From Thermoplasmatota archaeon (GTDB lineage: Archaea; Thermoplasmatota; Thermoplasmata; UBA10834), in NCBI GenBank assembly GCA_040751795.1, contig JBFMHR010000003.1, forward strand, positions 13,586 through 77,585: DNA of 64,000 nt, read 5' to 3'. This document shows positions 29,427 through 61,044 of the stretch, piece by piece. Made by a program: the position numbers and the translations under genes. The stretch's first letter is position 1. Every line of letters starts with the position of its first letter. Under the pieces are notes generated by a model. It was not told the DNA's origin. It worked only from the letters and a program-made list of their open reading frames with translations, and made no database searches.

Positions 29427-30482
29427 TCATCCTAAGGCCCCTGCAAGGCCGTACGAGGGCGGCCTGTAGCCGACCTCCTCGATGCCTACCGGGGACGAGC
29501 ACTGCGCCGCCGCTCCGGGCGTCCTGATGCCCGTGACGATCGCCATGAGCTTGATGTTGCTGCCAGCGTCGGGGTCTATGCGTGCGCCGAGCTTGATGTT
29601 CGCCGTGTCGCCGAGCCTGTTGGTTATGCCGTTGAAGACCTCGTAGGCCTTCCTCAGGGAGAGCGTGGGCCCGCCCGTGACGTGTATCATCGCCCCGGTG
29701 GCGCCCTCGAAGTCTATGTCCAGGAGGGGGTTGCTGATCGCCTCGAGGACGACCTTGTGGGCGTCCTCGCTCTCGCCGTAGAGGACCGTGGACGCGCCGC
29801 CCTTGAGCATCATCGTCCTGAAGTCCGCGAAGTCCAGGTTGATCATGCTGGTCTCGCAGATCGTCTCGGTGACGCCCCTGACGACCTCCACGATGAGCTG
29901 GTCCATGACCATGAACGCCTGCTCTATCGGCAGCTTGGGCACTATCTTGAGGAGCCTGTTGTTGTCGAGGATGATGGTGCTGTGGGCGCGCTCGCGCAGC
30001 TTCGCGATCCCCGCCATGGCCACGCGCGACCTGCCCTTCTCTATGTCGAAGGGGATGGTCACGAGCGCGACGGAGATCGCGCCGTGCTTGCGGGCCGCCT
30101 CCGCGACGACCGGGGCGACTCCCGTGCCCGTCCCCCCGCCCATGCCGGCGGCGACGAACACGATGTCGTAGTCCCGGACGAGGAGCTCGATCTTGTCCAG
30201 GTAGTCGTAGGCGACCTTCTCCCCTATGGCGGGGTCGCCCCCCGTGCCGTATCCGTTGGTGAAGTTGTCGCCGATGAGGAGCTTCTTGCCGGCGTTCACC
30301 CTGGACATGTGGAACTTGTCGGTGTTGATGGCTATGGTGTCCGCCTCGAGGCCGGCCTGGTTCATCCTGTGCACGCTGTTGGAGCCGCCGCCTCCGCAGC
30401 CGACGACGCAGATCTTGGGGGACAGGCGCGCCTCGAGGTCGCAGTCGTTCTCGAGGGCGTCCTGGATGATCCTGTTGAGCAT
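29427..30482 (-). CDS. ftsZ2: divergent FtsZ paralog (FtsZ2-like by its linkage to an upstream RHH gene)
   Basis: VVGCGGGGSNSV, AAGMGGGTGTG and T7-loop INLDFADF are conserved. The GLGAGA.P block is replaced by GYGTGGDP. GGAGGTG lies 13 nt upstream of the ATG. Confidence 0.8.
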   Translation of the reverse strand: MLNRIIQDALENDCDLEARLSPKICVVGCGGGGSNSVHRMNQAGLEADTIAINTDKFHMSRVNAGKKLLIGDNFTNGYGTGGDPAIGEKVAYDYLDKIELLVRDYDIVFVAAGMGGGTGTGVAPVVAEAARKHGAISVALVTIPFDIEKGRSRVAMAGIAKLRERAHSTIILDNNRLLKIVPKLPIEQAFMVMDQLIVEVVRGVTETICETSMINLDFADFRTMMLKGGASTVLYGESEDAHKVVLEAISNPLLDIDFEGATGAMIHVTGGPTLSLRKAYEVFNGITNRLGDTANIKLGARIDPDAGSNIKLMAIVTGIRTPGAAAQCSSPVGIEEVGYRPPSYGLAGALG

Positions 30483-30570
30483 GCGCTAACCGCACCTCCC
30501 GGGGGAGGGCGTGCGCTCATGCGTACATGCGTGCGTGGCCGACATCTTCCCATCCCTTGTTTCTAGGCCG

Positions 30571-30885
30571 TCACCGCTCCAGTTCCTCTATCGCCTTCGA
30601 CAGCCTCTTGCGTATGTATTCGCGCACGGCGTTCCTTATCGCGTCGTCGACGGACACGGAGTCGCCGTCCTGGACGAGCTGCTTGAGGTTGACCACATTC
30701 CCCTTGGGCAGCTCGACTGTGACCTTCTCTATGTACTCGGGCGTGAACTCGCCCTCGACGAACTTGTCGATGGCGGCCCTAATCGCGTCAGATATGGTGG
30801 AGAACCTGCCCTGGTCCACGAGAGCCTGGAGTGCATGGATGCGCTCCTCCGGGAGCCGGATTGTGACCCGCTCTGACTCTACCAT
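30571..30885 (-). CDS. ribbon-helix-helix (CopG-type) protein made of two tandem RHH repeats; CdrS-like by position upstream of ftsZ2
   Basis: RVTIRLPEERIHALQALVDQGRFSTISDAIRAAIDKFV aligns with KVTVELPKGNVVNLKQLVQDGDSVSVDDAIRNAVREYI within the same 104-aa protein. Confidence 0.7.
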   Translation of the reverse strand: MVESERVTIRLPEERIHALQALVDQGRFSTISDAIRAAIDKFVEGEFTPEYIEKVTVELPKGNVVNLKQLVQDGDSVSVDDAIRNAVREYIRKRLSKAIEELER

Positions 30886-30953
30886 CTGGCAGCCTCCTGT
30901 CGTCCGACGATATCGCGGTGTTCGTCAGACAAATGTCAGTATCAACTCCGTGA

Positions 30954-30961
30954 TATTTATA
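30954..30961 (-). promoter_or_regulatory. TATA box (TATAAATA on minus strand) of the RHH-ftsZ2 operon
   Basis: Lies ~69 nt upstream of ATG 30885, with AGGAGG 8 nt before the ATG. The IS end at 30976 abuts it. Confidence 0.45.
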
Positions 30962-30975
30962 CCTTTTCAGCCCTC

Positions 30976-31365
30976 GGTTCTGGTGCATTAGCGGGTGTTG
31001 GCCGTCCGCTGTTTGTCCGCTGTTTCTTTTCGGGTGCTGGCTAGCTTCAATAACTCGTGCCATTTGAAGCCCTTTAGAGGGGGCAGATCGGCGGCCTCTC
31101 CAGGGGTCTTTCCTAGTGTCTGATGCGTCCGCACCATGTCGTAGTGCACTCTCCACCCGTCCATCAGGGCGGCTGCGCCCGTCTCTCCGTCGAAGGCCCT
31201 CATGACCTTGGTTCGGGACTTCTCCGAGCCGTGGAGCCTCTCGATCTTGTTGTTGTTCTTCTCCGCCCTGATGCTCTCGACCAGGACATGCGGGTTCTTG
31301 TGGCCCGTGCCAAGCTCGCGCCTGATGGCCTTCGGGTAGCCTGGAGGCAACGTCGTCGGGCATAA
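30976..31365 (-). mobile_element. IS6-family insertion sequence remnant: terminal repeat plus 3' portion of the DDE transposase gene (5'-truncated)
   Basis: The end GGTTCTGGTGCA resembles IS6-type termini (IS26: GGCACTGTTGCAAA). Translation ...YPKAIRRELGTGHKNPHVLVESIRAEKNNNKIERLHGSEKSRTKVMRAFDG...VHYDMVRTHQTLGKTPGEAA contains the NNxIE region and the C-terminal YN..RPH..L-like block. The N-terminal catalytic half is missing. Confidence 0.7.
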
Positions 31366-31370
31366 TGTCG

Positions 31371-32162
31371 TCATCTCAAAGCCCACCGCAACACTTCCGA
31401 CAATACCGTCAGTCCAATAGGAATGAGGATGTACGCCACAGCTGTCCAAAGCCGCTTCTTCCATACGTCTCCTATCCTACTATGCTCAGGGCCAGTTACG
31501 AGTTCGACTCTTGGATAGAGGTTTTCAAACCGTTTAACAAAAGATGGCATTGCATATATCGCTGCGATGAAGAACACAAGGAAGAGAAACCAGAATGCGT
31601 TGCTATCCCACTCTGCATCCTCAGTGAGCTTGGTCAATATCACGATTGTATTCGTGAAGAGATAAGCGAACACTAGCGGCAATAATGTAATCATGCAGAA
31701 TCGTCTTAGCTTTGTAAATTTCACCTGCGGCTTTGCGTCTCCGATTATCTTCTCTAGAGTACCCCGAATGCCATTTACCCAGATGTCCTGGCTACCTGTA
31801 ACGGATATTACATTGTTTGTGTCGGTATCAGAACCATGTTCCAGCCGGATAGAAATGGTCTTATTCTCATCCTTATTCTCAAATACCATTTCTACATAGA
31901 CAATCCTCTTGTCATAGAGCCGTCCTCCTTCTGCGAAGACCCCTGCGTCGTCACATTCGTATTGCGTCCCGTCCGAACTTCGAAGAATGTATTTCCTCGT
32001 CGGTACTGTCCTTGTCGGTGGATACACAACAACAGGGTCATCGGGGTCAGCTTCCTCGGCAGTTTTCAGATATTCTGCCTCAATGACCTCTGCCAACTTC
32101 CTAATGTCGCCAATCGTGAATATCCTGTCAGAAATCCTGTATGGTGGCGGGGTGATCTTCAT
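31371..32162 (-). CDS. hypothetical protein: ~150-aa soluble N-domain plus three or four C-terminal TM helices
   Basis: 263 aa in AT-richer DNA. AGGAGG upstream of the ATG. TM segments FCMITLLPLVFAYLFTNTIVIL, AFWFLFLVFFIAAIYAM, LWTAVAYILIPIGLTVL. No family recognised. Confidence 0.6.
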   Translation of the reverse strand: MKITPPPYRISDRIFTIGDIRKLAEVIEAEYLKTAEEADPDDPVVVYPPTRTVPTRKYILRSSDGTQYECDDAGVFAEGGRLYDKRIVYVEMVFENKDENKTISIRLEHGSDTDTNNVISVTGSQDIWVNGIRGTLEKIIGDAKPQVKFTKLRRFCMITLLPLVFAYLFTNTIVILTKLTEDAEWDSNAFWFLFLVFFIAAIYAMPSFVKRFENLYPRVELVTGPEHSRIGDVWKKRLWTAVAYILIPIGLTVLSEVLRWALR

Positions 32163-32402
32163 AATCGTTGATTCCTCCTTCGACTATCCACGTCGAAATA
32201 CTATAGTGAGCTTATGAATGTAATTCATGAATCATCTGGTCATGCTTGATTTCGCTGGATTCCGCCCACCACCCAAATTGCCACGCTCAGGCGGGGCCGT
32301 CAGACCACCCTCCGATTTGCTCCAGAACCTCAGCCTCGGGCATTGTCATCTTGAGTGTGATAGCCAGACCACGTCTGGTATGACGAATTTCTTACGAGTT
32401 CG

Positions 32403-33338
32403 CTACTCAGCTGAGTACTTGTATCGAAGGTCGACCAGAATCCTGTCATAGAGGTTAGAGGCACTCTCGAGGTATGCCGAGGCGGCAAGGGCTTTTCCCC
32501 TCAGTTCTTCTGAATGGAGGGCAGTAACAAGACCTGGTACCCTGATCTTCTTGCCATCGAGATTGCTGATCACGAAAGGTCGGTCGCCACCCCATATCAA
32601 AGTGTTGAAATAATCCTTCTGAGGTGATTGGCTTTGGTGCTCCGTGAGATGCTTGTACATTGTGAAGACCACGCTGCGCACAATCTCGGTCTGGTCATCC
32701 GGCTTCGTGCGTTCTACATCCACTCCTTTCGCAATCTCATAGGCTTCGGTGGCAAAGTCGTTGAAATTCCTGATGAACGAGACTGATTCCTTCTCCAGCT
32801 CATCCATCATATTGACAAGGTTTCCGTCGAGGTACTGCATGTCTTTCTGACGATCTGGCGTGATGTGCTTCCGCCACGCTGTCACAAGTCCCTCGGGAAT
32901 CTTCCCGTCTTCAAACCGAAGATTGCCAGCTCTGATTCTGACAACTGTGCTAGGCATCATAGAGGTCTTGTACTTGACAAAAGCTTCCTGGGCAGCAGCA
33001 CTCAACTTCCCGTCCTCCTGCCTTAGGACTGATGCACGGTTTCGAAGGCTGACCGCCTTTCTATCAGCCGATAAAGTACACCACAGCGCGGAACACCACA
33101 ACATTATCATTGAGAAGAAGGTGAGCGCCGATGCGACAACGGCTATCTGCCTGAAGGGCTCGCCCTCCGGTGCATACGCGAGACTCGTTAGGAGGGCTAC
33201 GAGAACCACAATAATCACAGTTGGCAGCCCCTTCAGGAGACTCATCCATATCTCCCTGTGAGTTTCGAGGTCTTGAATGTCTTGATTGGATTGCCTAAGT
33301 TCCTCATTGAGACCTGCAAGCCTTCCGCCCACAACCAT
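32403..33338 (-). CDS. hypothetical protein: N-terminal helix plus 2 TM hairpin, ~200-aa soluble C-domain
   Basis: 311 aa in AT-richer DNA. TMs LPTVIIVVLVALLTSLAYA and IAVVASALTFFSMIMLWCSALWC. No family recognised. Confidence 0.6.
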   Translation of the reverse strand: MVVGGRLAGLNEELRQSNQDIQDLETHREIWMSLLKGLPTVIIVVLVALLTSLAYAPEGEPFRQIAVVASALTFFSMIMLWCSALWCTLSADRKAVSLRNRASVLRQEDGKLSAAAQEAFVKYKTSMMPSTVVRIRAGNLRFEDGKIPEGLVTAWRKHITPDRQKDMQYLDGNLVNMMDELEKESVSFIRNFNDFATEAYEIAKGVDVERTKPDDQTEIVRSVVFTMYKHLTEHQSQSPQKDYFNTLIWGGDRPFVISNLDGKKIRVPGLVTALHSEELRGKALAASAYLESASNLYDRILVDLRYKYSAE

Positions 33339-33394
33339 TGAACCGAGAACTACGAAGTTGGTGATTAAACTGACTCAGCGAACAGTCCACTGAA

Positions 33395-33513
33395 TGGAGT
33401 CTCCCCCAACCATTCTCAAATGGGCAGATAAAACCGGCCTTCTCTGCGAGGGGCAGTCCACCCAGCACAGAGTGTCTCCTCAAGAAGTTGTACTGAATCA
33501 CGGAAGAAGGCAC
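33395..33513 (-). pseudogene. relic of a second transposase C-terminus
   Basis: ...VIQYNFLRRHSVLGGLPLAEKAGFICPFENGW parallels the C-terminal block of the IS6-like fragment (VHYDMVRTHQTLGKTPGEAADLPPLKGFKW). There is no upstream catalytic region. Confidence 0.4.
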
Positions 33514-33547
33514 CTTGTCATGACAATCCTCAAATAGCGCACAACAG

Positions 33548-34090
33548 ATGGATTCCTCTGGAGGAGGTGGTATGCAAGCCTCTAGTCTTAGTCTTGAGAA
33601 GAGAGGATTCTGGGAAGCATCGAGGGAGGCCTACAGGTTCATTCTGGCTATGGCCATCCTGATCATCTTCGGGATGTTGCTGGTAGCCACCATGGCGGGA
33701 GGATATACTGACCCGACGGTCATTGCGGGCATGTTCAGCGGCTGGATAGTAGCCATCATTGGCTTCTACTTCATGGATGAAGTGTCTGCTCGGTCTACGT
33801 CCGAAGAGGTCAAGCGAGCAGTCCAGAGCCAATACGACGATGCATTCGCAGCGCACGAGGAGAACCTAAGGGCAAAAGACACCGTCATACAGCGGTTGAA
33901 GGACGAGCTAGTCACTCTATCCTATGACTGTGCCAGGGCCAAGAAGGAGCGGGATGAAATCATAAACCAGCAGAAGGAGGCTCTCGAGAAGCTGATAAAC
34001 GAGGTCGAGGAACGACGAGCATTTGCGAAGCAATTCTCAGACATGCTAACTCAGCTTGGCCCGAAGCCAGAGAGTGTGAAGGAGGGATAG
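33548..34090 (+). CDS. hypothetical 2-TM protein with C-terminal coiled coil
   Basis: 180 aa. TMs FILAMAILIIFGMLLVATMAG and IAGMFSGWIVAIIGFYFM, then a heptad-rich tail (LRAKDTVIQRLKDELV...EKLINEVEERRAF). Confidence 0.6.
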   Translation: MDSSGGGGMQASSLSLEKRGFWEASREAYRFILAMAILIIFGMLLVATMAGGYTDPTVIAGMFSGWIVAIIGFYFMDEVSARSTSEEVKRAVQSQYDDAFAAHEENLRAKDTVIQRLKDELVTLSYDCARAKKERDEIINQQKEALEKLINEVEERRAFAKQFSDMLTQLGPKPESVKEG

Positions 34091-34114
34091 ATCCTTTCCA
34101 AGGAAAGGTGTGAG

Positions 34115-34375
34115 GTGCTGTCTATGGCAGAGGAGAAGGAAACCCTGAAGCAAAAGGTTACCCGTTTCGAGGAATGGCTTGAAGAGATTGACAAGCAGAA
34201 CCAGGTCAACTTCGAGGAATTGAAGCTGGTGCTCAAGCGAAAACCGTCTGAAGATGACTCATGTGCCGATGTCAGACTGGCTGTTCAGCAGACAGTTGCC
34301 AGGGCAACTGAGGATAGTGTCAGGATAGACAACGAATCCAGGGAGAGATTGAGGAAGGTCAAGAGGGCGTTCTGA
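34115..34375 (+). CDS. hypothetical small coiled-coil protein
   Basis: 86 aa, charged and helical, 24 nt after the previous gene on the same strand. Confidence 0.45.
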   Translation: MLSMAEEKETLKQKVTRFEEWLEEIDKQNQVNFEELKLVLKRKPSEDDSCADVRLAVQQTVARATEDSVRIDNESRERLRKVKRAF

Positions 34376-34416
34376 ACTTCAATCGAGCTCTGTCCACTGC
34401 TGCGTCCAATGATGTC

Positions 34417-34713
34417 CTACGAACTCAACCACGCTGACAGGAACTCGAGGTAGTCCTGGGAGTTCTTGCCGAACGAGTGGTTCTCCACCGACTCCATGAG
34501 CCTGTCGACGCAGTTCACCATGGCCCTGTCCGACCACTTCTTCTCCGCCGCCACGACCCTCACGACGTTGAACAGCGTCCAGGGGAGGATGGTGTAGTCC
34601 TTAACCGTGTCCTCGCCGACGAGGATTCTCCGGAGGCTCTTGAGGGCCTTGAGCACATCGCTGTCGGTCATCGATGGATCGAGCTCGTAGAGTTCTAGGA
34701 TTGTTGACTCCAT
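34417..34713 (-). CDS. hypothetical protein (98 aa)
   Basis: Start taken at MESTILELYELDP... (34713). The upstream part of the listed ORF is low-complexity and overlaps the IS end. Confidence 0.45.
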   Translation of the reverse strand: MESTILELYELDPSMTDSDVLKALKSLRRILVGEDTVKDYTILPWTLFNVVRVVAAEKKWSDRAMVNCVDRLMESVENHSFGKNSQDYLEFLSAWLSS

Positions 34714-34868
34714 TCCCCAGTAGACCGGGGCATACTTCCCCCAATGGCTCCTGCTCACGCCACGTTCATGGGGCGAGCTGTTGAAGATGCTTTCGGATAC
34801 CGTGCCATGATCTCCTTCTTGAGCAGTTCGCGGATGTTGTGGAGGGTGACCCTCAGCCTGAGCTCCCT

Positions 34869-34998
34869 GGTTCTGGTGCATCAACGGGCAGTGGCAGTCC
34901 GCTGTTTGTCCGCTGTTTCTTTTCGGGTGCTGGCTAGCTTCAGAAGCTCATGCCATTTGAAGCCCTTCGGAGGGGGCAGGTCGGCGGCCTCTCCGGGG
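34869..34998 (-). repeat. second, shorter copy of the IS6-type end (direct repeat of 30976-31105)
   Basis: Same GGTTCTGGTGCA terminus. Near-identical ...GTCCGCTGTTTGTCCGCTGTTTCTTTTCGGGTGCTGGCTAGCTTCA...TGCCATTTGAAGCCCTT...GGGGGCAG.TCGGCGGCCTCTCC. Encodes only the last ~35 codons (PGEAADLPPPKGFKWHELLKLASTRKETADKQRTATAR*). Confidence 0.75.
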
Positions 34999-35008
34999 CC
35001 GGATGCGG

Positions 35009-36451
35009 TCAGATCGAGAGCATGTATTCCTTCGGGATCGAGACGATGTTATCTTCCGGGAACACGGAGAGCTCGTTCTCGGATATCAGGACCCCGTACT
35101 TCGGCCGGACCTTCTTAGCCGTCCTGATGATCTGTCCCTTCCCCTTGGTCCCGTACCCCACCTCGATGACTATCTCCTCACCGCTCGAGAGCCTGACGAT
35201 GAAGTCTGCGCCCCCTTCGCGCGCGTCGTGGAAGAAGTCGAGCCAGTTCTCCGTCCCCCGCAGCCTGAACAGGGATGCCGAGACCGCCTCCTCGAGGAGG
35301 CGGCCGTGTACCTCAGGGGTGTGAGCGAACTTGCCCACGAGGTGCAGCAGCGCCGCCTTGACCACCGGGGCGTTGAACTTGTACTTCGGGGACTTGCTGA
35401 TCCCGCTCGAGACGGAGCCATAGGGCCTGATCGGATAGATGACCTCGGACTTGATCAACACGTCCAGGACCTCGCTCAGGGCGGACCTGGATATCTTGAC
35501 CTTCTGGCTCAGCGACTCGTAGCTGCACTTCCCATTGACGGCGAACAGCAGGAGGATGTTGAATATCTTGTCCAGGGTCTCCTTGTCGAAGTTCTGGATG
35601 GCGGGTATGTCGGAGTTGACGATCTTCGACAGCGAGTCGAGGACGCGGCCGAACACGTCCTCCTCCTCCGAGAAGGGGATCGCGAACGGGAGCGTCCCGA
35701 CGGTCAGGAACGTCTCGACCTCGTAGGGCTTGATCGATGACCAGTAGCGGTCGACCTCCCCCTTCATCCCCCTCAGGCTCTCGTAAGCCTCGATGGCGTC
35801 CTTCGAGCGGAATATGGCGCCCTCTATCCTCTCCTTCAGGTTCCTCGTCTGGGTCACCTTGTGCTTCAGGGTCATGTACTCGGGGAAGTTCAGGGGGTAC
35901 AGCCTCTCCTTCCTCGCCCGCCTCGCCGCGTCGGAGCTGCTCTGCAGAGAGAGGGCTGACGACCCGGTGGTGATCATGAAGACCCTCCTGGTGCGGTCGA
36001 AGACGGCCTTCTGCGCGACCGCCCAGTTCCTATCATAGTGGGCCTCGTCGACCAGGAGGAAGTGGTTGCCAGAGAGGTCCTCGAGGCTGGTGTTCATGAG
36101 GGACTCGTAGGCCCTGACGACGCCGTTCAGGTCCGCGCCTATCAGCCTGGTGACCTGGTCCATCGAGACGTATAGTATGTTCTGCTGGGGCACCCCCTGC
36201 TGCGCCAGATGGAAGTACAATTGGGCCAGCAGAGTGGTCTTGCCCGTCCCCCGGAGGCCGGAGAAGACCACCCACCTGTCCTCCGAGCGTCCGCTCAGAT
36301 AGCCGTCCAGGAGCGTCCTGAAGCGATAGTAGGCCCATCGCCAGTAGATGCGGTTCCCTCCGGCGTCGAGGGTGTAGTTGCCCAGCATGGTCGGTGCGAG
36401 GGACACCCGGCTGCGGACGTGGTCCATCAGCAGGGGCGATACTTCCATCAC
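35009..36451 (-). CDS. AAA+ ATPase of the AAA_14/DUF4143 (COG1373) type
   Basis: 480 aa. Walker A GLRGTGKTTL, Walker B FLLVDEAHY, long C-terminal DUF4143-like region. Confidence 0.8.
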   Translation of the reverse strand: MMEVSPLLMDHVRSRVSLAPTMLGNYTLDAGGNRIYWRWAYYRFRTLLDGYLSGRSEDRWVVFSGLRGTGKTTLLAQLYFHLAQQGVPQQNILYVSMDQVTRLIGADLNGVVRAYESLMNTSLEDLSGNHFLLVDEAHYDRNWAVAQKAVFDRTRRVFMITTGSSALSLQSSSDAARRARKERLYPLNFPEYMTLKHKVTQTRNLKERIEGAIFRSKDAIEAYESLRGMKGEVDRYWSSIKPYEVETFLTVGTLPFAIPFSEEEDVFGRVLDSLSKIVNSDIPAIQNFDKETLDKIFNILLLFAVNGKCSYESLSQKVKISRSALSEVLDVLIKSEVIYPIRPYGSVSSGISKSPKYKFNAPVVKAALLHLVGKFAHTPEVHGRLLEEAVSASLFRLRGTENWLDFFHDAREGGADFIVRLSSGEEIVIEVGYGTKGKGQIIRTAKKVRPKYGVLISENELSVFPEDNIVSIPKEYMLSI

Positions 36452-36754
36452 AGTATGTTATATCATACCATAAGATAATGATTATGTATCGCTGTAGACT
36501 ACTCTTAGTGCGACAACACCTATAGCGAGCGATGTACGCCCATGCGCGGTATGGCTCCTCAGTCAGTCTCTCCAGGGCCGATGGATGGAGTGAGTATCCC
36601 CTTGGAGGGGGATACTTACACCGACTCCCGTGTCGGTCCCGTGGCGTTGCCTCGGCAATCAGCCACCAGACCCCGGGGACCGGAGAGCATCTGGAACCGG
36701 CGGCCGACTGATGCCGCGGTGGCCGTGTTCCTTCCGAGCGAGAAATAGAGGTTT

Positions 36755-53678: not shown

Positions 53679-54745
53679 CCATGGCCTCCGACGCGGAGAA
53701 GGTCCTGACGGACCTGGTGCTGATGAGGTCCCAGGAGACCGACCCTATGGGGCCCATCGCAGACTACGTGGCCAGGCGCATGAAGGCCCTCGGGATGGAC
53801 GTGAGGAGGCACGGCTCCGCCGAGAAGCCCTCGCTCGTGGGCGAGCGGGGGAAGGGCGGCGTGGTCCTGTCGGGCCACCTCGACACCGTGCCCATAGGCA
53901 CCGGCTGGACCAGGGGGCAGGGCGAGGTCGTGGACGGCGCCATGTACGGCCGCGGCACCAACGACATGAAGGGCGGGTGCGCGGCGATGCTGCTGGCGGC
54001 CGAGGAGCTCGTGGCCGCCGATGTGCCTTTCGCGCTCTGCTTCACCACCGACGAGGAGACGTCCATGGACGGGGCGGCCGCCGCGGCGAAGGACCCCGCG
54101 CTCGGCGCGGCCCCGGCGGTGGTCGTTACCGAGGCCACGGAGTTCGACATCGTCGTCAGGGAGAAGGGGCTGGTGCAGTTCTCCATCACCACCAGGGGGA
54201 GGCCGGCCCACGCCAGCATGCCCCACCTGGGCGAGAACGCCATCGCAGGGATGGTGTCGGTGCTCCACAGGCTGGAGGACGTCTACAGGCCCCCCAAGGA
54301 CCCGCTGGAGCAGATGACCCTGTGCGTCGACACGATCAGGGGCGGGACCGCGATGAACGTCATACCCGACGAGTGCGTCGCCGAGGTCGACGTCAGGTAC
54401 CCGCCGCACATGAGCACCCAGGCGGTCCTGGACCTGGTCAGGAGGAAGGTCGGGGACGCCAGGTTCGAGGTCAAGGTCCTGCACGAGCTGGACCCCGTGG
54501 AGACGGAGGCGGACAGCGGGGCCGTCAGGACCATGAGGGACGTCGTAGGCCCGGGGGCGAAGGTCCTCTCGGTGCCCTACGCGACTGAGATGGTCATGTT
54601 CAAGGCCGCCAACAAGAGGCTCATGGTCTGCGGGCCCGGTGAGTCGGCCGGGTGCCACATCCCGGACGAGAAGATACGCGTCGCGGACGTGGCCAGGGCG
54701 GCGGAGATCTACACAGAGTACTGCTCCCGCATGGCCGGCGGCTAG
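53675..54745 (+). CDS. M20-family deacylase (ArgE/DapE-type)
   Basis: ATG 53675 overlaps the M42 stop (ATGA). VVLSGHLDTVP, YGRGTNDMKGG, TTDEETS. Confidence 0.8.
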   Translation: MTMASDAEKVLTDLVLMRSQETDPMGPIADYVARRMKALGMDVRRHGSAEKPSLVGERGKGGVVLSGHLDTVPIGTGWTRGQGEVVDGAMYGRGTNDMKGGCAAMLLAAEELVAADVPFALCFTTDEETSMDGAAAAAKDPALGAAPAVVVTEATEFDIVVREKGLVQFSITTRGRPAHASMPHLGENAIAGMVSVLHRLEDVYRPPKDPLEQMTLCVDTIRGGTAMNVIPDECVAEVDVRYPPHMSTQAVLDLVRRKVGDARFEVKVLHELDPVETEADSGAVRTMRDVVGPGAKVLSVPYATEMVMFKAANKRLMVCGPGESAGCHIPDEKIRVADVARAAEIYTEYCSRMAGG

Positions 54746-56031
54746 GGGAAGACCCTGCTGACCGTGCGCGGGTAGGGGATCGCGTCCCTGATGTGGTCCA
54801 TCCTGCAGACCCACGTCAGGAACCTCTCGACGCCCAGGCCGAAGCCGGAGTGCGGGACGGAGCCGTACCTCCTCAGGTCGAGGTACCACGAGTACCTGTC
54901 CAGGCTCTCGCCCTTCTCCCTGATGCGCTCCATCAGGAGGGCGTTGTCCGTCTCCCTCTCGCTGCCGCCGATGATCTCGCCGAAGCCCTCCGGCGCCAGG
55001 AGGTCCGTGTTCTTGTAGGTCCTGGGGTCGTCCGGGTTCTCCTTCATGTAGAACGGCTTCAGCTCCTTCGGGTAGTTCATGACGAACATGGGGGTGCCGC
55101 TGTCCTTGGTCAGCTCGCGCTCCTCGACCGCCCCGAAGTCGGAGCCCCATTCCACGTCCAGGCCCTTCGCCTGGAGCCGCTCTATGGCCTCGCCGTACGG
55201 GAGCCTGTCGAACGGCGGCGCGACCCGCAGGAGGTCCGCGGGGTCCCGCTTGAACAGGCCGAGCTCGGCGCTGCAGTCCTTGGCGGCCCTGTGCAGCATC
55301 GCCGTCACGAGCTCCTCCTGGACCTTCATGTTCTCCGCGTTGTCGACCCAGGCTGCCTCCATCTCGAGGTGCCAGAACTCGGCGAGGTGCCTGGGGGTCC
55401 TGGACTTCTCCGCCCTGAACGACGGCGTGAGCGAGTAGACCTTCTCGCAGGAGTAGATGAGCGACTCGAGGTAGAACTGGGCGCTCTGCGACAGGTACGC
55501 TATCCTGTCGAAGTACTTGATCTGGAAGAGCTGCGTGCTGTCCTCCGCGGCGACGCCTGTTATGATGGGAGGGTTGACCTCGACGTAGCCGTTCTCGTGG
55601 AACCAGTCCCTCGCGCCCATGAGGAGGGAGTCCTTGATCCGCATCGCGGCCGTCTGCTCCCTGGAGCGTATCCAGAGGTGGCGCAGGTCGAGGAGCAGCT
55701 CGGTGCTCTGGTACTCCGTGATGGGGAACGGCTCCGCCGGGCCCACGAGGGTGAACCTGGAGGCCCGCACCTCGAACCCGCCGGGGGCGCGCTTGTCCTC
55801 CGCCATGGTCCCCTCTATGATGGCCGATGATTCGATGCCCGCGTTGGTGGCCGCCGCGAAGTCCGGCTCCGGCACTGTGCCCTTCTTGACGGTGACCTGG
55901 ACTATGCCAGAGGAGTCCCTGAGCACGGCGAACACGATCCCCCCGCTGCTCCGGGTCCGGTAGATCCAGCCCCTCACCTGCACGGCCTTCCCGACCATGT
56001 CCTCGGCGAGGACGTCCCTTATCGCGACCAT
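54742..56031 (-). CDS. asnS: asparaginyl-tRNA synthetase
   Basis: Start MVAIRDVL at 56031. Class II motif 2 FRAEKSRTPRHLAEFWHLEME, YSWYLDLRRYGSVPHSGFGLGVERFLTW, GGSERE. The upstream part of the listed ORF is run-in. Confidence 0.85.
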   Translation of the reverse strand: MVAIRDVLAEDMVGKAVQVRGWIYRTRSSGGIVFAVLRDSSGIVQVTVKKGTVPEPDFAAATNAGIESSAIIEGTMAEDKRAPGGFEVRASRFTLVGPAEPFPITEYQSTELLLDLRHLWIRSREQTAAMRIKDSLLMGARDWFHENGYVEVNPPIITGVAAEDSTQLFQIKYFDRIAYLSQSAQFYLESLIYSCEKVYSLTPSFRAEKSRTPRHLAEFWHLEMEAAWVDNAENMKVQEELVTAMLHRAAKDCSAELGLFKRDPADLLRVAPPFDRLPYGEAIERLQAKGLDVEWGSDFGAVEERELTKDSGTPMFVMNYPKELKPFYMKENPDDPRTYKNTDLLAPEGFGEIIGGSERETDNALLMERIREKGESLDRYSWYLDLRRYGSVPHSGFGLGVERFLTWVCRMDHIRDAIPYPRTVSRVFP

Positions 56032-56097: not shown

Positions 56098-56589
56098 TTG
56101 GCGGTACCGCTGACCGTGAAGGTCAGGGAGGCGGCCCCCGAGGACCTGGGGGGCCTGATGCGCCTCGAGGAGGAGTGCTTCGGGGTCGAGAAGTTCTCGG
56201 AGGCCACCCTCATGGCGTTCCTCGTGAGGGAGGACGCCTTCGCCCTCGTGGCCGAGGAGGAGGGCGTCGTGGGCGCCGCCCTCTGCCTCTGCTCGAGGGG
56301 CAGGGCCGAGGGGAGGATAGCCTCGATAGCCGTCCTGGGGCGGGAGAGGAGGCGGGGGGTCGGGTCGCTGCTCCTCCGGGAGACGGAGGCGCGGCTCGAG
56401 GCGATGGGGGCCAGGACCTTCGGGCTCGAGGTCGACGTCGAGAACGGGCCCGCGATAGCCCTCTACACGAAGCACGGCTACACGCTCAGGGCGATCGTGA
56501 GGGATTACTACGGCGCGGGCAGGCACGCGTACGTGATGGAGAAGTCCCTGAGCCCCCAGGGGTCGAGGGTCAGCGTCAGGCCTTCCTGA
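56098..56589 (+). CDS. GNAT-family N-acetyltransferase (RimI-like)
   Basis: TTG start. ...IASIAVLGRERRRGVGSLLL...LEVDVENGPAIALYTKHGY. Confidence 0.8.
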   Translation: MAVPLTVKVREAAPEDLGGLMRLEEECFGVEKFSEATLMAFLVREDAFALVAEEEGVVGAALCLCSRGRAEGRIASIAVLGRERRRGVGSLLLRETEARLEAMGARTFGLEVDVENGPAIALYTKHGYTLRAIVRDYYGAGRHAYVMEKSLSPQGSRVSVRPS

Positions 56590-59500
56590 CGACCAGCTCG
56601 AGCGGCATCCTGTCGACAGTCCACTTGACGGCGCCCTCCGCTGGCTCCGACCGCGTGAGCGCGCGCGCGTGCGTCTCGTGGCGTATATGCTCCATGTGGG
56701 ACGAGATGGCCGCCTCGATGTCCGGGTGGGCGCTGTACTCCACGACCACCTCGTCCTCGAACTCCAGGCCCTGCTCCTTCCTCATGTGCTGCACCCGCCT
56801 GATGACCTCCCTCGAGAGACCCTCCAGCCTCAGCCTCCGGTCCACCGCGAGGGACATGTAGGCGTGGATGTCGCCGGCGCTGGCGTGGGCGTACCCGCCC
56901 TTCTGCCTCTCCGACACCAGGACGTCCTCCTCGGTGAGGTCGAAGCCGCCGAGCCGGACCTTGCCCGATGCGCGCAGGTGCCTGACCAGCTCGCTCCCGT
57001 CCACCTGGTCCAGGAGCCTGGAGACCTCCGAGGCGGACTCCTTGAACTTGGGCCCGAGGGTCCTGAGGTTCGGGGACACGGCGAACTCCACCATGCCCTC
57101 CCTCGACTCGACGCACTCGACCCGCTTGACGTTCAGCTCCTCCGCGATCATCCTCTCGTACCTGCGCAGGACCCATGCGACGTCCCTGCTGGAGGCTATC
57201 ACCGCGTGGTCCAGGGGCTGCCTCAGCTTCACGTTCGCACCCTGCCTGGCGGTCCTCCCGGCCTCCACCGCCTGCCTCACGGCCGCCATCTGCGACTCGA
57301 GGGGTGGGACCACCATCGAGGCGTCCGCCCTCGGGAAGTCCTCGAGGTGGACGCACCCCTTCGGCCCCTTCAGGCACCTGTACAGCCAGTCCGAGAAGAA
57401 CGGCGCCGCCGGCGCCATGATGAGGGAGAGGGATGCGAGGCACTCGTGGAGCGTCGCGTGCGCGGAGAACCTGTCCTCGGGGTCGTTCTCCATCCAGAAC
57501 CGCCTCCTCGACCTGCGGACGTACCAGCCGCTCAGGTCGTCGACGAACAGAGTGGTCGCGCGGACCGCCGACTGCACGTCCATCGCGTCGAACGCCGCCC
57601 TCACGTCCCCTATGGTCGAGTTGAGCCTGGACAGGATCCACCTGTCGAGGTCGTGGGTCCGGTCCTTCGCCCCCTGGCCCGTGTACCCGTAGGCGTTGGC
57701 GTTGGACGAGTAGAACGCGTAGAGGTTCAGGACGGTCGTGAGCGTGCCCACCATCGTCTTCCTCACGTCCTCCATCGAGAACCTGACGGGGCTGGACACC
57801 GTCGAGCCGAGGAGGTACAGCCTGGCCGCGTCTGCGCCCACGGAGCCGAACACCTCGGCCGGGGACGCCGCGCCGGCGGCGCCCGCCCCCATCGCCCTGC
57901 CCTTCTCGTCGAGCAGGCGCTCCAGCACCAGCACCGACCGGAAGGCGGGCGCGTCGAAGAGCAGCGTGCCCACGACGTGCTGCGTGTAGAACCAGCCCCT
58001 GGTCTGGTCCGACGACTCGGTGATGAAGTCGACCGACCTGTGCGTCTCGAACTCGGCGATGTTCTCGAACGGGTAGTGGTACTGGGCGAACGGGGCGCAG
58101 CCGGAGTCGTACCAGCAGTCGAGCACGTCCTGCTCCCTGGCCATCCCCGCGCCGCACTCAGGGCAGCGGAGGCGGACCGAGTCCACGGACGGCCTGTGGA
58201 GGTCCAGGGGCTCGGGGAGCGGCGCCTCCGAGAGACGGGCCAGCTCCTCCACGCTCCCGACGCAGACCTCGTGGCCGGACGGGCACCTCCAGACCGGCAG
58301 CGGGGTCCCCCAGTACCTGCTCCTGCTGACCACCCAGTCCTTCGCGTCCTCGAGGAACGTGCCGAACCTGCCCCCGCCGTAGTCGGTCGGCACCCAGCTG
58401 ATCTCGGAGTTGAGCTCGGCCATCCGCTCCTTCGCGCCCGAGGCGCGCACGGACCAGACGTCCCTGGGCTTGTACATGAGAGGGCTGCGGCACCTCCAGC
58501 AGAACGGGCTGGAGCGCCTGGTCAGGCCCCACTTGAAGAGGAGGCCCTTCGCCTCGAGCATGCGCACGACCTCCGGGGAGGCGTCGCCCACGCTCCTGCC
58601 TGCGAGGTCCGGGACCTCTGCGGTGAACCTGCCCGAATCGTCGACGGGGTCGAACGGGGCGACGCCCTCATCCTCCCCGATCTGGCGGTCGACTGAGGCG
58701 TATGGGGGCGACACGTGCATGACGCCCGTCCCCTCCGCCTTGGTGACCTCGTGCGAGCCCACGACCCTGTGGCCCCTGCCCCCGAAGTCACAGTACGCGA
58801 AGGGAGGCTCGTAGGCCATGCCGACCAGCTCGGAGCCGGCCATCGTCCTGACCGGCCGGGCCTCCGGGCCCAGCATGTGGGCCTTGTCCTCCGCGACGAT
58901 GGCGCGCTCGCCGGCCACCTCGTACACGCCGTAGGCCTTCGATGCGTCGACCGCGAGGAGCGCGTTCGCGACCAGCGTCCAAGGCGTCTCGGTGTAGACC
59001 AGGGCCGACGCGCCGAGCGACGGGACCCTGAACCTCACCACGGCCCACCTGACCTCCGCCTCCTCGAAGCCGAGGGCGACCTCGTGCGTGCTGAGGGGCG
59101 TGCCGCACCTGGGGCAGTACGGCGCGACCTGGAGCGACTTCGACACCAGGCCTCTGGAGTGTAGCTGCTTGAAGGACCACCAGACGCTCTCGATGTACTC
59201 GTTGGACATCGTGAGGTAGGCATGCTCGTAGTCGATCCCGTATCCGAGCCTGCGGCTCATGTCCTCCCAGTCGGCCTTGTACCTCACGACGCTCTCGCGG
59301 CAGGCGTCGTTGAACCCCCCGACCCCGAAGGCCTCGACCGCGCCCTTGCCGTCGATGCCGAGGGCGCGCTCGACCTCGATCTCGACCGGGAGGCCGTGGC
59401 AGTCCCACCCCGCGATGAAGGGGAGGACATCGCGGCCGTTCATGATGTGGTACCTGAGGAAGGAGTCCTTCACGGCGCGCGTGAGCGCGTCGGACATGTC

Positions 59501-59668
59501 GGGGGGCCTGTTGGCCGTCGGGGGGCCCTCGCAGAACACCAGAGGCGCCCCGCCCCGCATCCGCTCCTTCACCCGGGAGAGGGTCCCCTCCTCTCGCCAG
59601 AGCGCGAGGACCTCCTCCTCGAGCTGGGGGAAGGTCTCCCCCGCGGGTTCCCGGTAGTACCTCTTCAT
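56576..59668 (-). CDS. isoleucyl-tRNA synthetase homolog with degenerate HIGH and KMSKS motifs
   Basis: Start MKRYYREPAGETFPQLEEEVLALWREEG at 59668. IleRS blocks GPPTAN, GWDCHGLPVE, TETPWTLVAN, WVVSRSRYWGTPLPVW, DCWYDSG, DQTRGWF and LSGWYVRRSRRRFW are collinear. HIGH is replaced by DMSD and KMSKS by AMGAG. Confidence 0.85.
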   Translation of the reverse strand: MKRYYREPAGETFPQLEEEVLALWREEGTLSRVKERMRGGAPLVFCEGPPTANRPPDMSDALTRAVKDSFLRYHIMNGRDVLPFIAGWDCHGLPVEIEVERALGIDGKGAVEAFGVGGFNDACRESVVRYKADWEDMSRRLGYGIDYEHAYLTMSNEYIESVWWSFKQLHSRGLVSKSLQVAPYCPRCGTPLSTHEVALGFEEAEVRWAVVRFRVPSLGASALVYTETPWTLVANALLAVDASKAYGVYEVAGERAIVAEDKAHMLGPEARPVRTMAGSELVGMAYEPPFAYCDFGGRGHRVVGSHEVTKAEGTGVMHVSPPYASVDRQIGEDEGVAPFDPVDDSGRFTAEVPDLAGRSVGDASPEVVRMLEAKGLLFKWGLTRRSSPFCWRCRSPLMYKPRDVWSVRASGAKERMAELNSEISWVPTDYGGGRFGTFLEDAKDWVVSRSRYWGTPLPVWRCPSGHEVCVGSVEELARLSEAPLPEPLDLHRPSVDSVRLRCPECGAGMAREQDVLDCWYDSGCAPFAQYHYPFENIAEFETHRSVDFITESSDQTRGWFYTQHVVGTLLFDAPAFRSVLVLERLLDEKGRAMGAGAAGAASPAEVFGSVGADAARLYLLGSTVSSPVRFSMEDVRKTMVGTLTTVLNLYAFYSSNANAYGYTGQGAKDRTHDLDRWILSRLNSTIGDVRAAFDAMDVQSAVRATTLFVDDLSGWYVRRSRRRFWMENDPEDRFSAHATLHECLASLSLIMAPAAPFFSDWLYRCLKGPKGCVHLEDFPRADASMVVPPLESQMAAVRQAVEAGRTARQGANVKLRQPLDHAVIASSRDVAWVLRRYERMIAEELNVKRVECVESREGMVEFAVSPNLRTLGPKFKESASEVSRLLDQVDGSELVRHLRASGKVRLGGFDLTEEDVLVSERQKGGYAHASAGDIHAYMSLAVDRRLRLEGLSREVIRRVQHMRKEQGLEFEDEVVVEYSAHPDIEAAISSHMEHIRHETHARALTRSEPAEGAVKWTVDRMPLELVVRKA

Positions 59669-60013
59669 GGCAACAGACTCCTCCAAAAGGGGCTCTATCA
59701 CATACTCGGCAATGGTGGCATGAATCAGCCAATAGCTATAATCAGGGACTGGCCAGCCGAGTACATCGGAGGGTTTGGAACGACGGTCACGATATATAAT
59801 ACCTAGTCGCGGGCGATGGACGCTATTGGTCATCGGCGCTGCGGGCGCGCCCGGGCCCGTGACTAGGCGTGTCATGGCACGGCCCGCGCATGCTGGCCTG
59901 TTGCCAGGGCCGCAGGGCCTCTAAGAAAGTAATATATAACAGAGGACATATAGCGCGCCAGCGTGCAATCCATGGCCCGGGGTGGTGCCCAGGGCCAGAT
60001 GGGGTGAACACGG

Positions 60014-60184
60014 ATGGAAGAGCCCTTGTGCAACGTGGAGTTTCTGAAGAGCAACGCCTCGTACGTGGCCAGAGTACAGAGCGACCTGGGCGGAGTGAGG
60101 GAGTACAGGAGCGCCTCGTTGGAGGAGATACTTGAGCAGGTGATCATAGACCTCCAAGAGGAGTTCGAGGGCGCGCGCCTTTAA
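60014..60184 (+). CDS. possible small protein (56 aa)
   Basis: MEEPLCNVEFLKSNASYVARVQSDLGGVREYRSASLEEILEQVIIDLQEEFEGARL. Below the ORF-track size cut-off. Codon usage is plausible. No family recognised. Confidence 0.3.
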   Translation: MEEPLCNVEFLKSNASYVARVQSDLGGVREYRSASLEEILEQVIIDLQEEFEGARL

Positions 60185-60307: not shown

Positions 60308-60649
60308 ATGGAAGAGAAGGACAAGAAGGAGTACGAGGAGATCATCTCGTCCTACTACGGCGAGGACCAGGTCGCCGCGCTCGTGAGCTTCAAGATAGAC
60401 ACCAAGGGCTCCGACACGGTGGCGCAGAAGATCGCGGGGTTCGACCACGTCGAGGACGTGTTCCTGGTGACGGGCGACACCGACATCATCGCCAAGGCCA
60501 GGTTCCCCAACTACGCGTCCCTGAAGAAGTTCATAGTCGACGACGTCGCGGGCATAGAGGGCGTGAAGGAGACCAAGACATTCATGGTCGTCACGACGTT
60601 CAAGGAGAGGGGCAAGGTCAGGGAGCCCGAAGAGGAGCAGAAGGAATAG
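60308..60649 (+). CDS. stand-alone Lrp/AsnC ligand-binding (RAM) domain protein
   Basis: ...ALVSFKIDTKGSDTVAQKIAGFDHVEDVFLVTGDTDIIAKARFPNYASLKKFIVDDVAGIEGVKETKTFMVV. No HTH is present. Confidence 0.7.
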   Translation: MEEKDKKEYEEIISSYYGEDQVAALVSFKIDTKGSDTVAQKIAGFDHVEDVFLVTGDTDIIAKARFPNYASLKKFIVDDVAGIEGVKETKTFMVVTTFKERGKVREPEEEQKE

Positions 60650-60953: not shown

Positions 60954-61025
60954 GCGGCTGTAGTCTAGTGGTTAGGACTGAAGCTTCCCAAGCTTTAAGC
61001 CCGGGTTCGAATCCCGGCAGCCGCA
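60954..61025 (+). tRNA. tRNA-Gly (anticodon CCC)
   Basis: GCGGCTG-TA-GTCT-AGTGGTTA-GGAC-T-GAAGC-TTCCCAA-GCTTT-AAGC-CCGGG-TTCGAAT-CCCGG-CAGCCGC-A folds as a cloverleaf. No intron and no encoded CCA. Confidence 0.9.
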
Positions 61026-61044
61026 CTCATACCCCGCGGCCGGC

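Follow-up and report, generated by a model that had tools for sequence, protein, structure and literature searches.

A full-length isoleucyl-tRNA synthetase homolog without HIGH and KMSKS in uncultured Thermoplasmata, a candidate pseudo-synthetase

The DNA considered here is a 64,000-nucleotide stretch (the window) from a Thermoplasmatota archaeon (GenBank assembly GCA_040751795.1, contig JBFMHR010000003.1, positions 13,586 to 77,585). Its reverse strand encodes a full-length homolog of isoleucyl-tRNA synthetase (IleRS) in which both signature motifs of class I synthetases, HIGH and KMSKS, are replaced. The protein belongs to a clade of motif-poor archaeal homologs, and a close relative was found on a metagenome contig from another assembly (ERZ1649853; here L088). 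The gene and the sequence upstream of it contain the following features, in window positions.

56576..59668, minus strand: IleRS2-like coding sequence, 1030 aa (stop included); TIGR00392 686 bits, fold match to 8c8v with a template modeling (TM) score of 0.94.
59489..59509, minus strand: HIGH-loop equivalent, residues 54-60, RPPDMSD (canonical G-x-P-H-x-G-H), placed by alignments and identical in the independent assembly L088.
57860..57901, minus strand: KMSKS-loop equivalent, residues 590-603, GRAMGAGAAGAASP, placed by alignments; 2 of the 30 differences from L088 fall here.
57920..57922, minus strand: Glu583 in place of Gly in the strand before the KMSKS loop; Gly in 99% of canonical IleRS2 and 93% of the clade.
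58976..58996, minus strand: Thr-rich peptide of the CP1 editing site, residues 225-231, YTETPWT (canonical WTTTPWT).
58688..58717, minus strand: CP1 editing segment His318...Asp327; the window copy has both residues, and 84% of the clade lack the His.
59669..59768, minus strand: conserved structured 5′ leader of the IleRS-like gene, with an 11-bp long-range stem, an inner hairpin, and a second hairpin with GGAGG.
59791..59803, minus strand: TATA-like box GGTATTATATATC, about 25 nt before the leader and conserved in the alignment.

The open reading frame (ORF) runs intact over 1030 codons from an ATG at 59668 to a stop at 56576. Its start, MKRYYREP, is common to the homologs and the window protein, and a GGAGG lies 9-14 nt upstream. 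A longer ORF from the ATG at 59875 was ruled out, since the homologs begin with MKRYY and the extension would span the conserved promoter and leader. The protein scores 686.4 bits against TIGR00392 (isoleucine--tRNA ligase, EC 6.1.1.5), a modest margin over the equivalog cutoff of 621.4, and contains the Pfam domains tRNA-synt_1 (PF00133), Anticodon_1 (PF08264), and DUF5915 (PF19302). Its closest solved relatives by phmmer are IleRS2-type enzymes; it scores 746 bits against P. megaterium IleRS2 (8c8v; E 2e-222), 656 against T. thermophilus IleRS, and 263 against P. megaterium IleRS1. Archaeal IleRS have been divided into IleRS2 and a deep IleRS-A type (class definitions from a preprint, bioRxiv 10.64898/2026.02.03.703510). 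Judged by sequence, the window protein is of the IleRS2 type and not IleRS1 or IleRS-A, because its synthetic domain is nearer to IleRS2 and its C-terminus is of type 2 (DUF5915). An AlphaFold model built with 107 homologs has a full IleRS fold (predicted local distance difference test, pLDDT, 92; TM 0.94 on 8c8v), and the sole weak block, residues 591-600 (pLDDT 64), lies in the KMSKS-loop equivalent. An earlier reading of this DNA, made from its letters only (the sequence-only reading), had described a collinear IleRS framework in one frame. The TIGR00392 and Pfam matches, the 8c8v alignment, and the AlphaFold model all agree with that description.

Hidden Markov model, PDB-sequence, and structural alignments place the motif columns in the same positions. 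The phmmer alignment to 8c8v has no gaps around either motif. GPPTAN-RPPDMSD-ALTR stands opposite GPPTAN-GLPHVGH-ALGR, and GRAMGAGAAGAASP stands opposite GQKMSKSKGNALDP, that is, DEKGR-AMGAG-AAGAASP opposite DENGQ-KMSKS-KGNALDP. The HxGH columns are occupied by DMSD (nt 59489-59500) and the KMSKS columns, including that of the second Lys, by AMGAG (nt 57881-57895). The sequence-only reading had proposed both replacements at these positions and had taken them for substitutions rather than indels; the alignments confirm it on each count. A frameshift or alternative-frame origin of the loop was ruled out as well, since KMSKS does not appear in any other reading frame of the loop DNA. In canonical sequences the KMSKS columns are K in 100%, M in 99%, S in 100%, and K in 100%. 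Missing from the window protein are both His of HIGH, the Gly preceding HIGH, Gly59, Gly583, and both Lys of KMSKS, and Arg591 is the only basic residue left in its KMSKS loop. The pocket motifs GWDxHGLP, WxxSRxRYWGxPxP, DxWxDSG, and ExxDQxRGWF are all present. It is the most degenerate member of its clade. Canonical aminoacylation had already been called doubtful, and these results support the doubt; canonical adenylation is very doubtful. The change of Gly583 to Glu, the lost Gly before HIGH, the degeneration across the clade, and the clade-wide change of the editing site go beyond what had been noticed before.

Departures from HxGH do occur naturally in IleRS2. The G/AxHH variant, which confers mupirocin hyper-resistance, swaps positions 1 and 3 of the motif and is fully active (PMC10485003). 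It is the only natural HxGH departure described for IleRS and is confined to IleRS2 (PMC10485003). The window protein resembles it in being a natural HxGH departure within the IleRS2 type, but it is not a G/AxHH enzyme: the variant keeps two His and KMSKS, whereas the window protein has DMSD (HMGD or HIGD in relatives) and has lost KMSKS. An archaeal IleRS with APPALHH, of the G/AxHH type, and a normal KMSKS was also seen (L072; JBDRAY010000103.1, 'Methanobacteriota archaeon').

Comparison with orthologs indicates that the gene is under selection. The L088 protein is 96.4% identical to the window copy over 839 residues and keeps RPPDMSD, and its KMSKS-equivalent loop, GRAMRAGSAGAAS, differs from that of the window at two positions. 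Between the two genes the synonymous divergence (dS) is 0.130 and the nonsynonymous divergence (dN) 0.017, giving a dN/dS of 0.13; for four more distant relatives dN/dS is 0.15-0.23. The G+C fraction at third codon positions (GC3) of the compared genes is 0.84-0.97, so dS is underestimated if anything. Loss of the motifs is thus combined with purifying selection, which is one mark of a pseudo-synthetase; another would be a canonical synthetase of equal specificity in the same genome, and none was seen in the window or in the flanks of related loci. A decaying copy had been among the explanations offered earlier. We find it extremely improbable that the gene is a decaying pseudogene or that two GC-rich patches in it arose through errors of assembly or binning. 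The loop does contain GAGAAGAAS, written in GC-rich codons in a gene with a GC3 of 0.97, as drift would yield. Against decay or artefact stand the intact ORF, the alignment without gaps, the dN/dS of 0.13-0.23, the same DMSD in an independent assembly, and more than 100 related clusters from many samples in which motifs of this kind recur with unchanged synteny. The gene is not decaying, because its dN/dS is low, DMSD recurs in an independent assembly, and the gene is retained in a synteny conserved across the clade. We read the Ala/Gly-rich loop as the expected product of GC-driven drift at unconstrained positions in a protein that is otherwise constrained.

Among 5.8 billion proteins searched, 114 clusters matched the window protein with 57-84% identity, all of them from metagenome-assembled genomes of uncultured Thermoplasmata or 'Euryarchaeota'. 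Identity then drops to 45% for the nearest canonical IleRS (GMPHIGH, KMSKSKGN). Clustering of a library at 50% identity reduces the clade to one representative, and the next representative is 40% identical. In the neighbor-joining tree the members form a monophyletic group, and no internal branch is longer than the stem leading to it (0.32 substitutions per site). KMSKS is found in none of the 114 clusters. The loop is near random across the clade (entropy up to 3.2 bits), and about half of the members lack its second Lys, which almost every other IleRS representative has. The Gly of G-x-P-H is present in one of 111 clade sequences; the first His of HIGH is lost in 15 of them, and Asp replaces the fourth in 27, which fall into at least four distinct parts of the tree. 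Two subgroups of the clade differ in what they retain. In group B, x[RK]PHIGH is present, often together with K[IM]x[RK], but Ser, Gly, or Asn stands in place of the editing His. HIGH and KMSKS are most eroded in the window's subgroup, which belongs to group A and still has the editing His and Asp. Across the clade, conservation is about 100% in the pocket motifs GWDCHGLP, SRxRYWGTPLP, DxWYDSG, and ExxDQTRGWF. We compared the 111 clade sequences with a canonical control of matched divergence (mean pairwise identity 0.64 for the clade and 0.66 for the control), and the mean pairwise identities by region were as follows.

KMSKS loop: clade 0.34, control 0.93.
HIGH loop: clade 0.64, control 0.89.
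Editing Thr peptide: clade 0.60, control 0.96.
Editing His segment: clade 0.56, control 0.82.
CP1 domain: clade 0.50, control 0.67.
Anticodon-binding domain: clade 0.67, control 0.62.
C-terminal domain: clade 0.63, control 0.49.

As measured by these identities, constraint has shifted in the clade. The catalytic loops and CP1 are relaxed, and the tRNA-recognition end is tightened relative to normal IleRS.

CP1 is the most relaxed domain of the clade, and the editing site within it is not conserved as a feature of the family. WTTTPWT is degenerate, and the editing His, present in 100% of canonical sequences, is found in 16% of the clade (else Ser, Gln, Gly, or Asn). The window copy and its subgroup keep Thr226, Thr228, Thr231, Asn235, His318, and Asp327, and one Thr of the Thr-rich peptide of the window copy is Glu. 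The protein could be a free-standing trans-editing factor, which would not activate Ile but would hydrolyse Val-tRNA-Ile with its CP1 domain and so back an editing-poor IleRS. The residues largely kept in the window copy and its subgroup speak for such a factor. The Glu in the Thr-rich peptide, the degenerate editing site elsewhere in the clade, and the intact editing site of P0407, a candidate second enzyme described below, speak against it, and we consider it improbable. The function of the clade as a whole cannot be editing, because the site is degenerate across the clade. An editing role, one of the options in the sequence-only reading, is therefore tenable for the window's own subgroup, where the residues are kept, but not for most of the clade, where His and Thr are replaced. 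Split threonyl-tRNA synthetases (ThrRS) of Crenarchaeota, in which ThrRS-cat is paired with ThrRS-ed and editing takes place in trans, are the nearest parallel. Like such trans-editing proteins, the window copy would be a synthetase-derived protein without aminoacylation that retains most editing residues; unlike them, its clade does not conserve the editing site and still has the full synthetic domain.

The neighbouring genes are the following.

56098..56589, plus strand: GNAT acetyltransferase, convergent, with a 14-nt overlap with the 3′ end of the IleRS-like gene (56576-56589).
54742..56031, minus strand: class II Asn/Asp-tRNA synthetase-like gene (AsnRS-like), 429 aa, a syntenic neighbour with PF00152 and PF01336.
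60014..60184, plus strand: 56-aa protein, divergent and nearly invariant in the clade; differences at third codon positions, no Pfam match.
60308..60649, plus strand: stand-alone Lrp/AsnC ligand-binding (RAM) domain protein, PF01037, E 2e-15.

Gene order is conserved in all clade loci examined. On one side lie the genes for UPF0147, the RAM-domain protein, and the 56-aa protein, followed by the IleRS-like gene on the opposite strand. Beyond it come the overlapping GNAT, AsnRS-like, M20 and M42 peptidases, GcvT, DUF835, and Cdc6, and the order ends with the ribosomal proteins P1, L10, and L1. The 3′ overlap with GNAT is kept in all related loci examined, at about 14-56 nt. Two of the clade loci are in closed genomes of 1.4-1.7 Mb and one is in a single contig of 1.98 Mb (the complete genomes are CP070736.1, of assembly GCA_020347645.1, CP070748.1, of assembly GCA_020348345.1, and ERZ25039515 contig_27509). 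We found no literature on the closed genomes of the clade. A scan with the 56-aa protein also turned up related lineages (L096 and L098-L103, JGI metagenome contigs) that have AsnRS, GNAT, the 56-aa gene, and RAM in the window's order and orientation, with the small protein 81-89% and AsnRS 61-66% identical. These lineages have no IleRS-like gene between GNAT and the small ORF; contigs Ga0315277_10000707 and Ga0315281_10003465 come from sister lineages of this kind. The comparison of loci indicates that the gene was either inserted in the ancestor of the clade or deleted in its sisters. Since the sisters have the same locus without the gene, IleRS is encoded elsewhere in close relatives.

The 56-aa protein (MEEPLCNVEFLKSN...EEFEGARL) shows at most about 6 differences in 56 positions when genomes are compared in which the IleRS-like proteins share just 59-62% identity. 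The ORF is a real coding gene, because the differences sit at third codon positions. By eye it has a HicB/UPF0150-type likeness. As an obligate partner of the IleRS-like protein it is a weakened candidate, since the same protein occurs without the IleRS-like gene in the related lineages. Its own leader (59925-60013, plus sense; GCGCGCCAGCGTGCAATCCATGGCCCGGGGTGGTGCCCAGGGCCAGATGGGGTGAACACGG) is almost invariant in the clade and contains a near-perfect GC-rich hairpin; the leader of the sisters differs. Farther off, positions 30500-36500 or so form a low-GC island (51-58% GC, against about 65% elsewhere in the window) that encodes membrane proteins, a fragment resembling a transposase, and an ATPase-like ORF of 480 aa; it is probably a mobile element that has integrated here. 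An FtsZ/CetZ-like gene (29427-30482, minus strand) directly adjoins it. ARAGORN and Rfam identified a single RNA gene in the window, a tRNA-Gly(CCC) at 60954-61026 (plus strand).

The 100 nt before the ATG of the IleRS-like gene are more conserved than synonymous sites. The 11-bp long-range stem of this leader has compensatory changes at two pairs, the inner hairpin has a CUGAUUC loop with an invariant CUGAU, and the second hairpin contains the Shine-Dalgarno sequence GGAGG. The leader had no Rfam match to a known RNA family. GAU is the anticodon of tRNA-Ile. In E. coli, the thrS mRNA has an operator that is bound by its own synthetase. By analogy, the leader could be an autoregulatory operator bound by the IleRS-like protein.

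The reading we favour, and hold to be probable though well short of certain, is that the window protein is an IleRS2-derived pseudo-synthetase that still binds tRNA-Ile, with a working IleRS encoded elsewhere in the genome. It corresponds to the option of a pseudo-enzyme with a tRNA-binding or regulatory role in the sequence-only reading, and motif loss, purifying selection, and the shift in constraint make it the best supported. The monophyly and long stem of the clade, the sister loci without the gene, and the P0407 enzyme and degenerate bacterial genes described below also speak for it. The window protein has the IleRS fold in full, together with the zinc knuckles and the isoleucine/adenosine pocket, and has lost the elements that hold the ATP phosphates and stabilise the adenylation transition state. 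Because every known ATP-phosphate contact is lost, yet the gene is under purifying selection, the protein would seem not to adenylate and the organism to have another IleRS. Selection acts on the fold, the Ile/adenosine pocket, and above all the anticodon-recognition modules, and we therefore propose a non-catalytic role in binding tRNA-Ile. The protein would not make Ile-AMP at a useful rate but would retain binding of tRNA-Ile, and perhaps also of the charged 3′ end or of isoleucine. It might act, e.g., as a sensor, a sequestering factor, or a regulator of tRNA-Ile, and it may also bind its own structured leader with the conserved CUGAU loop.

Several results weigh against this reading. TBLASTN with canonical and clade queries found no second ileS in the 64-kb window, and none was seen in the 23-kb flanks of ten related loci. 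Searches with the nearest canonical group (P0116) and a high-GC canonical protein (P0227) gave no contig-length match between a Thermoplasmata-type IleRS2 and the clade contigs, and a composition test revealed no large high-GC canonical IleRS2 family matching the clade; these searches bear on Thermoplasmata-type IleRS2 only. A co-resident enzyme of that type is therefore unlikely on present sequence comparisons, and as a partner it was rejected for most of the clade by both query searches together with the composition test. HxGH is intact in 66 of 111 clade sequences, and a basic residue stands directly before P-H-x-G-H (position 54/55) in 93 of 111 (84%), compared with 7 of 118 canonical sequences (6%). 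The invariant pocket is also what would be expected of a working synthetase. Apart from these results, a scan of GTDB genomes with P0001 found seven clade loci and no second copies; matches to the generic peptide QYHYPFEN dominated it, and the window's genome was not among the matches.

The lack of another ileS in the window and the related loci, the lack of a matching canonical IleRS2 family, the conserved pocket, and the basic residue before P-H-x-G-H favour another explanation. On this view the lineage has no other IleRS, and the protein charges tRNA-Ile to this day, a new Arg or Lys of the HIGH loop replacing the KMSKS lysine and editing having been given up. The score above the TIGR00392 equivalog cutoff agrees with this. 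So do the retention of HxGH plus the new Arg/Lys in most members and the replacement of the fourth His almost only by Asp in several separate groups, which looks constrained and not random. Other IleRS representatives also tolerate HxGT and xMSKS, and IleRS2 tolerates G/AxHH (PMC10485003). However, the window protein lacks both His of HIGH, Gly59, Gly583, and all basic residues of the loop except Arg591. Across the clade the loop is near random, 15 members have lost the first His, 18 are without the compensating Arg/Lys, and about half lack the otherwise near-universal second Lys. Loss of editing is unusual in free-living organisms, and the sister lineages with the same locus but no gene make an IleRS elsewhere the ancestral or neighbouring state. 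We regard a sole, rewired IleRS as unlikely, though a serious contender. We give a slightly smaller chance to the corresponding claim that a free-living Thermoplasmata lineage lives with a sole IleRS lacking conserved KMSKS and editing, and in the window's subgroup also HIGH; together with it goes the claim that such a lineage would use the relocated basic residue, or a so far unknown means of Ile activation or Ile-tRNA supply.

The relocation of a basic residue has a parallel in arginyl-tRNA synthetase (ArgRS). Sekine et al. are said to have described in 2001, in J Biol Chem, some ArgRS without KMSKS in which a lysine of the HIGH loop replaces the KMSKS lysine. The clade is similar in its degenerate KMSKS loop and in the basic residue just upstream of HIGH. 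In these ArgRS, however, HIGH is intact and the lysine invariant, whereas the basic residue is missing in 16% of the clade and the window copy has no HIGH.

If the protein is instead an IleRS2-derived pseudo-synthetase, the enzyme that charges tRNA-Ile would be encoded elsewhere in the genome and would probably be of another type. One example is P0407 (MEA3201231.1; L115/L116, GCA_034667685.1, JAXDQU010000086.1), an IleRS-A-like protein labelled 'Thermoplasmata archaeon' from a metagenome-assembled genome, at a locus with 71% GC. It scores 417 bits against IleRS1, where the window protein scores 263. It has WCISRQRYWG, an intact WTTTPWT, the editing His and Asp, HIGT for HIGH, and AMSKS for KMSKS with the second Lys kept; HxGT and xMSKS are common to several other IleRS representatives. 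P0407 also has a long Lys/Ala-rich C-terminal tail. Because P0407 is IleRS-A-like and its editing motifs are intact, a different and apparently competent IleRS type occurs in high-GC Thermoplasmata. Its assembly matched none of the clade members by accession block or GCA number, which is a further point against the pseudo-synthetase reading. The simplest history would be the repurposing of a redundant IleRS2 copy, a paralog or xenolog, because the loss of constraint began on the stem of the clade, coinciding with a locus that the sisters lack. The gene would have entered or stayed at the GNAT/small-ORF locus in one Thermoplasmata lineage, changed fast, and been under purifying selection since then.

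Far more degenerate IleRS2-like genes were seen in bacteria (P0355, L118, GCA_034432955.1; P0384, L120, Ga0498921_0000160; P0410; P0385). HIGH, KMSKS, and DQTRGWF are lost in these, and the Asp of GWD is Glu, Asn, or Gln. P0355 and P0384 adjoin lspA, the classical position of ileS. The persistence of degenerate bacterial genes at the ileS-lspA position suggests that IleRS2 bodies are retained after loss of catalysis, which may be a wider, undescribed phenomenon.

Class I synthetases are defined by HIGH and KMSKS, and both motifs are considered indispensable. The archaeal lineage described here is abundant and retains an IleRS body of full length in which both signatures and the editing site are freed from constraint. 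If a second IleRS is present, the clade would be the first IleRS-derived pseudo-synthetase family in archaea, with an unknown tRNA-Ile-binding function possibly tied to the conserved mRNA leader. If it is absent, what is accepted about the mechanism of catalysis by class I enzymes would have to be revised. The clade genes receive the name 'isoleucine--tRNA ligase' from annotation pipelines, and they may be tallied under that name in marker-gene sets. In full-text literature searches, no account of archaeal IleRS homologs lacking the motifs came to light, nor anything on IleRS in Thermoplasmata.

Among solved enzymes the closest comparison is P. megaterium IleRS2 (8c8u/8c8v). The window protein is collinear with it over the full length (37% identity, TM 0.94), and the two have in common the domains, including the type-2 C-terminal tRNA-binding domains, the Zn knuckles, and the motifs of the Ile/adenosine pocket. 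The window protein differs in the replacement of HIGH, the preceding Gly, Gly583, and KMSKS, and the CP1 editing residues are degenerate across its clade. HisZ is named as an inactive synthetase paralog in PMC7373986, and inactive paralogs as such are already known; an IleRS-derived, clade-wide archaeal one would be new.

Known inactive synthetase paralogs include LeuRS-I of Sulfolobus, the SerRS-like SLIMP of insects, HisZ, and the HisRS-like domain of GCN2. To our knowledge, none of these is derived from IleRS. As proposed for the window clade, these are synthetase bodies, full-length or single domains, that have lost catalytic residues but remain under selection and bind tRNA or a partner. 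All of them coexist with a canonical enzyme, and the window clade differs from them in that its amino-acid pocket is intact.

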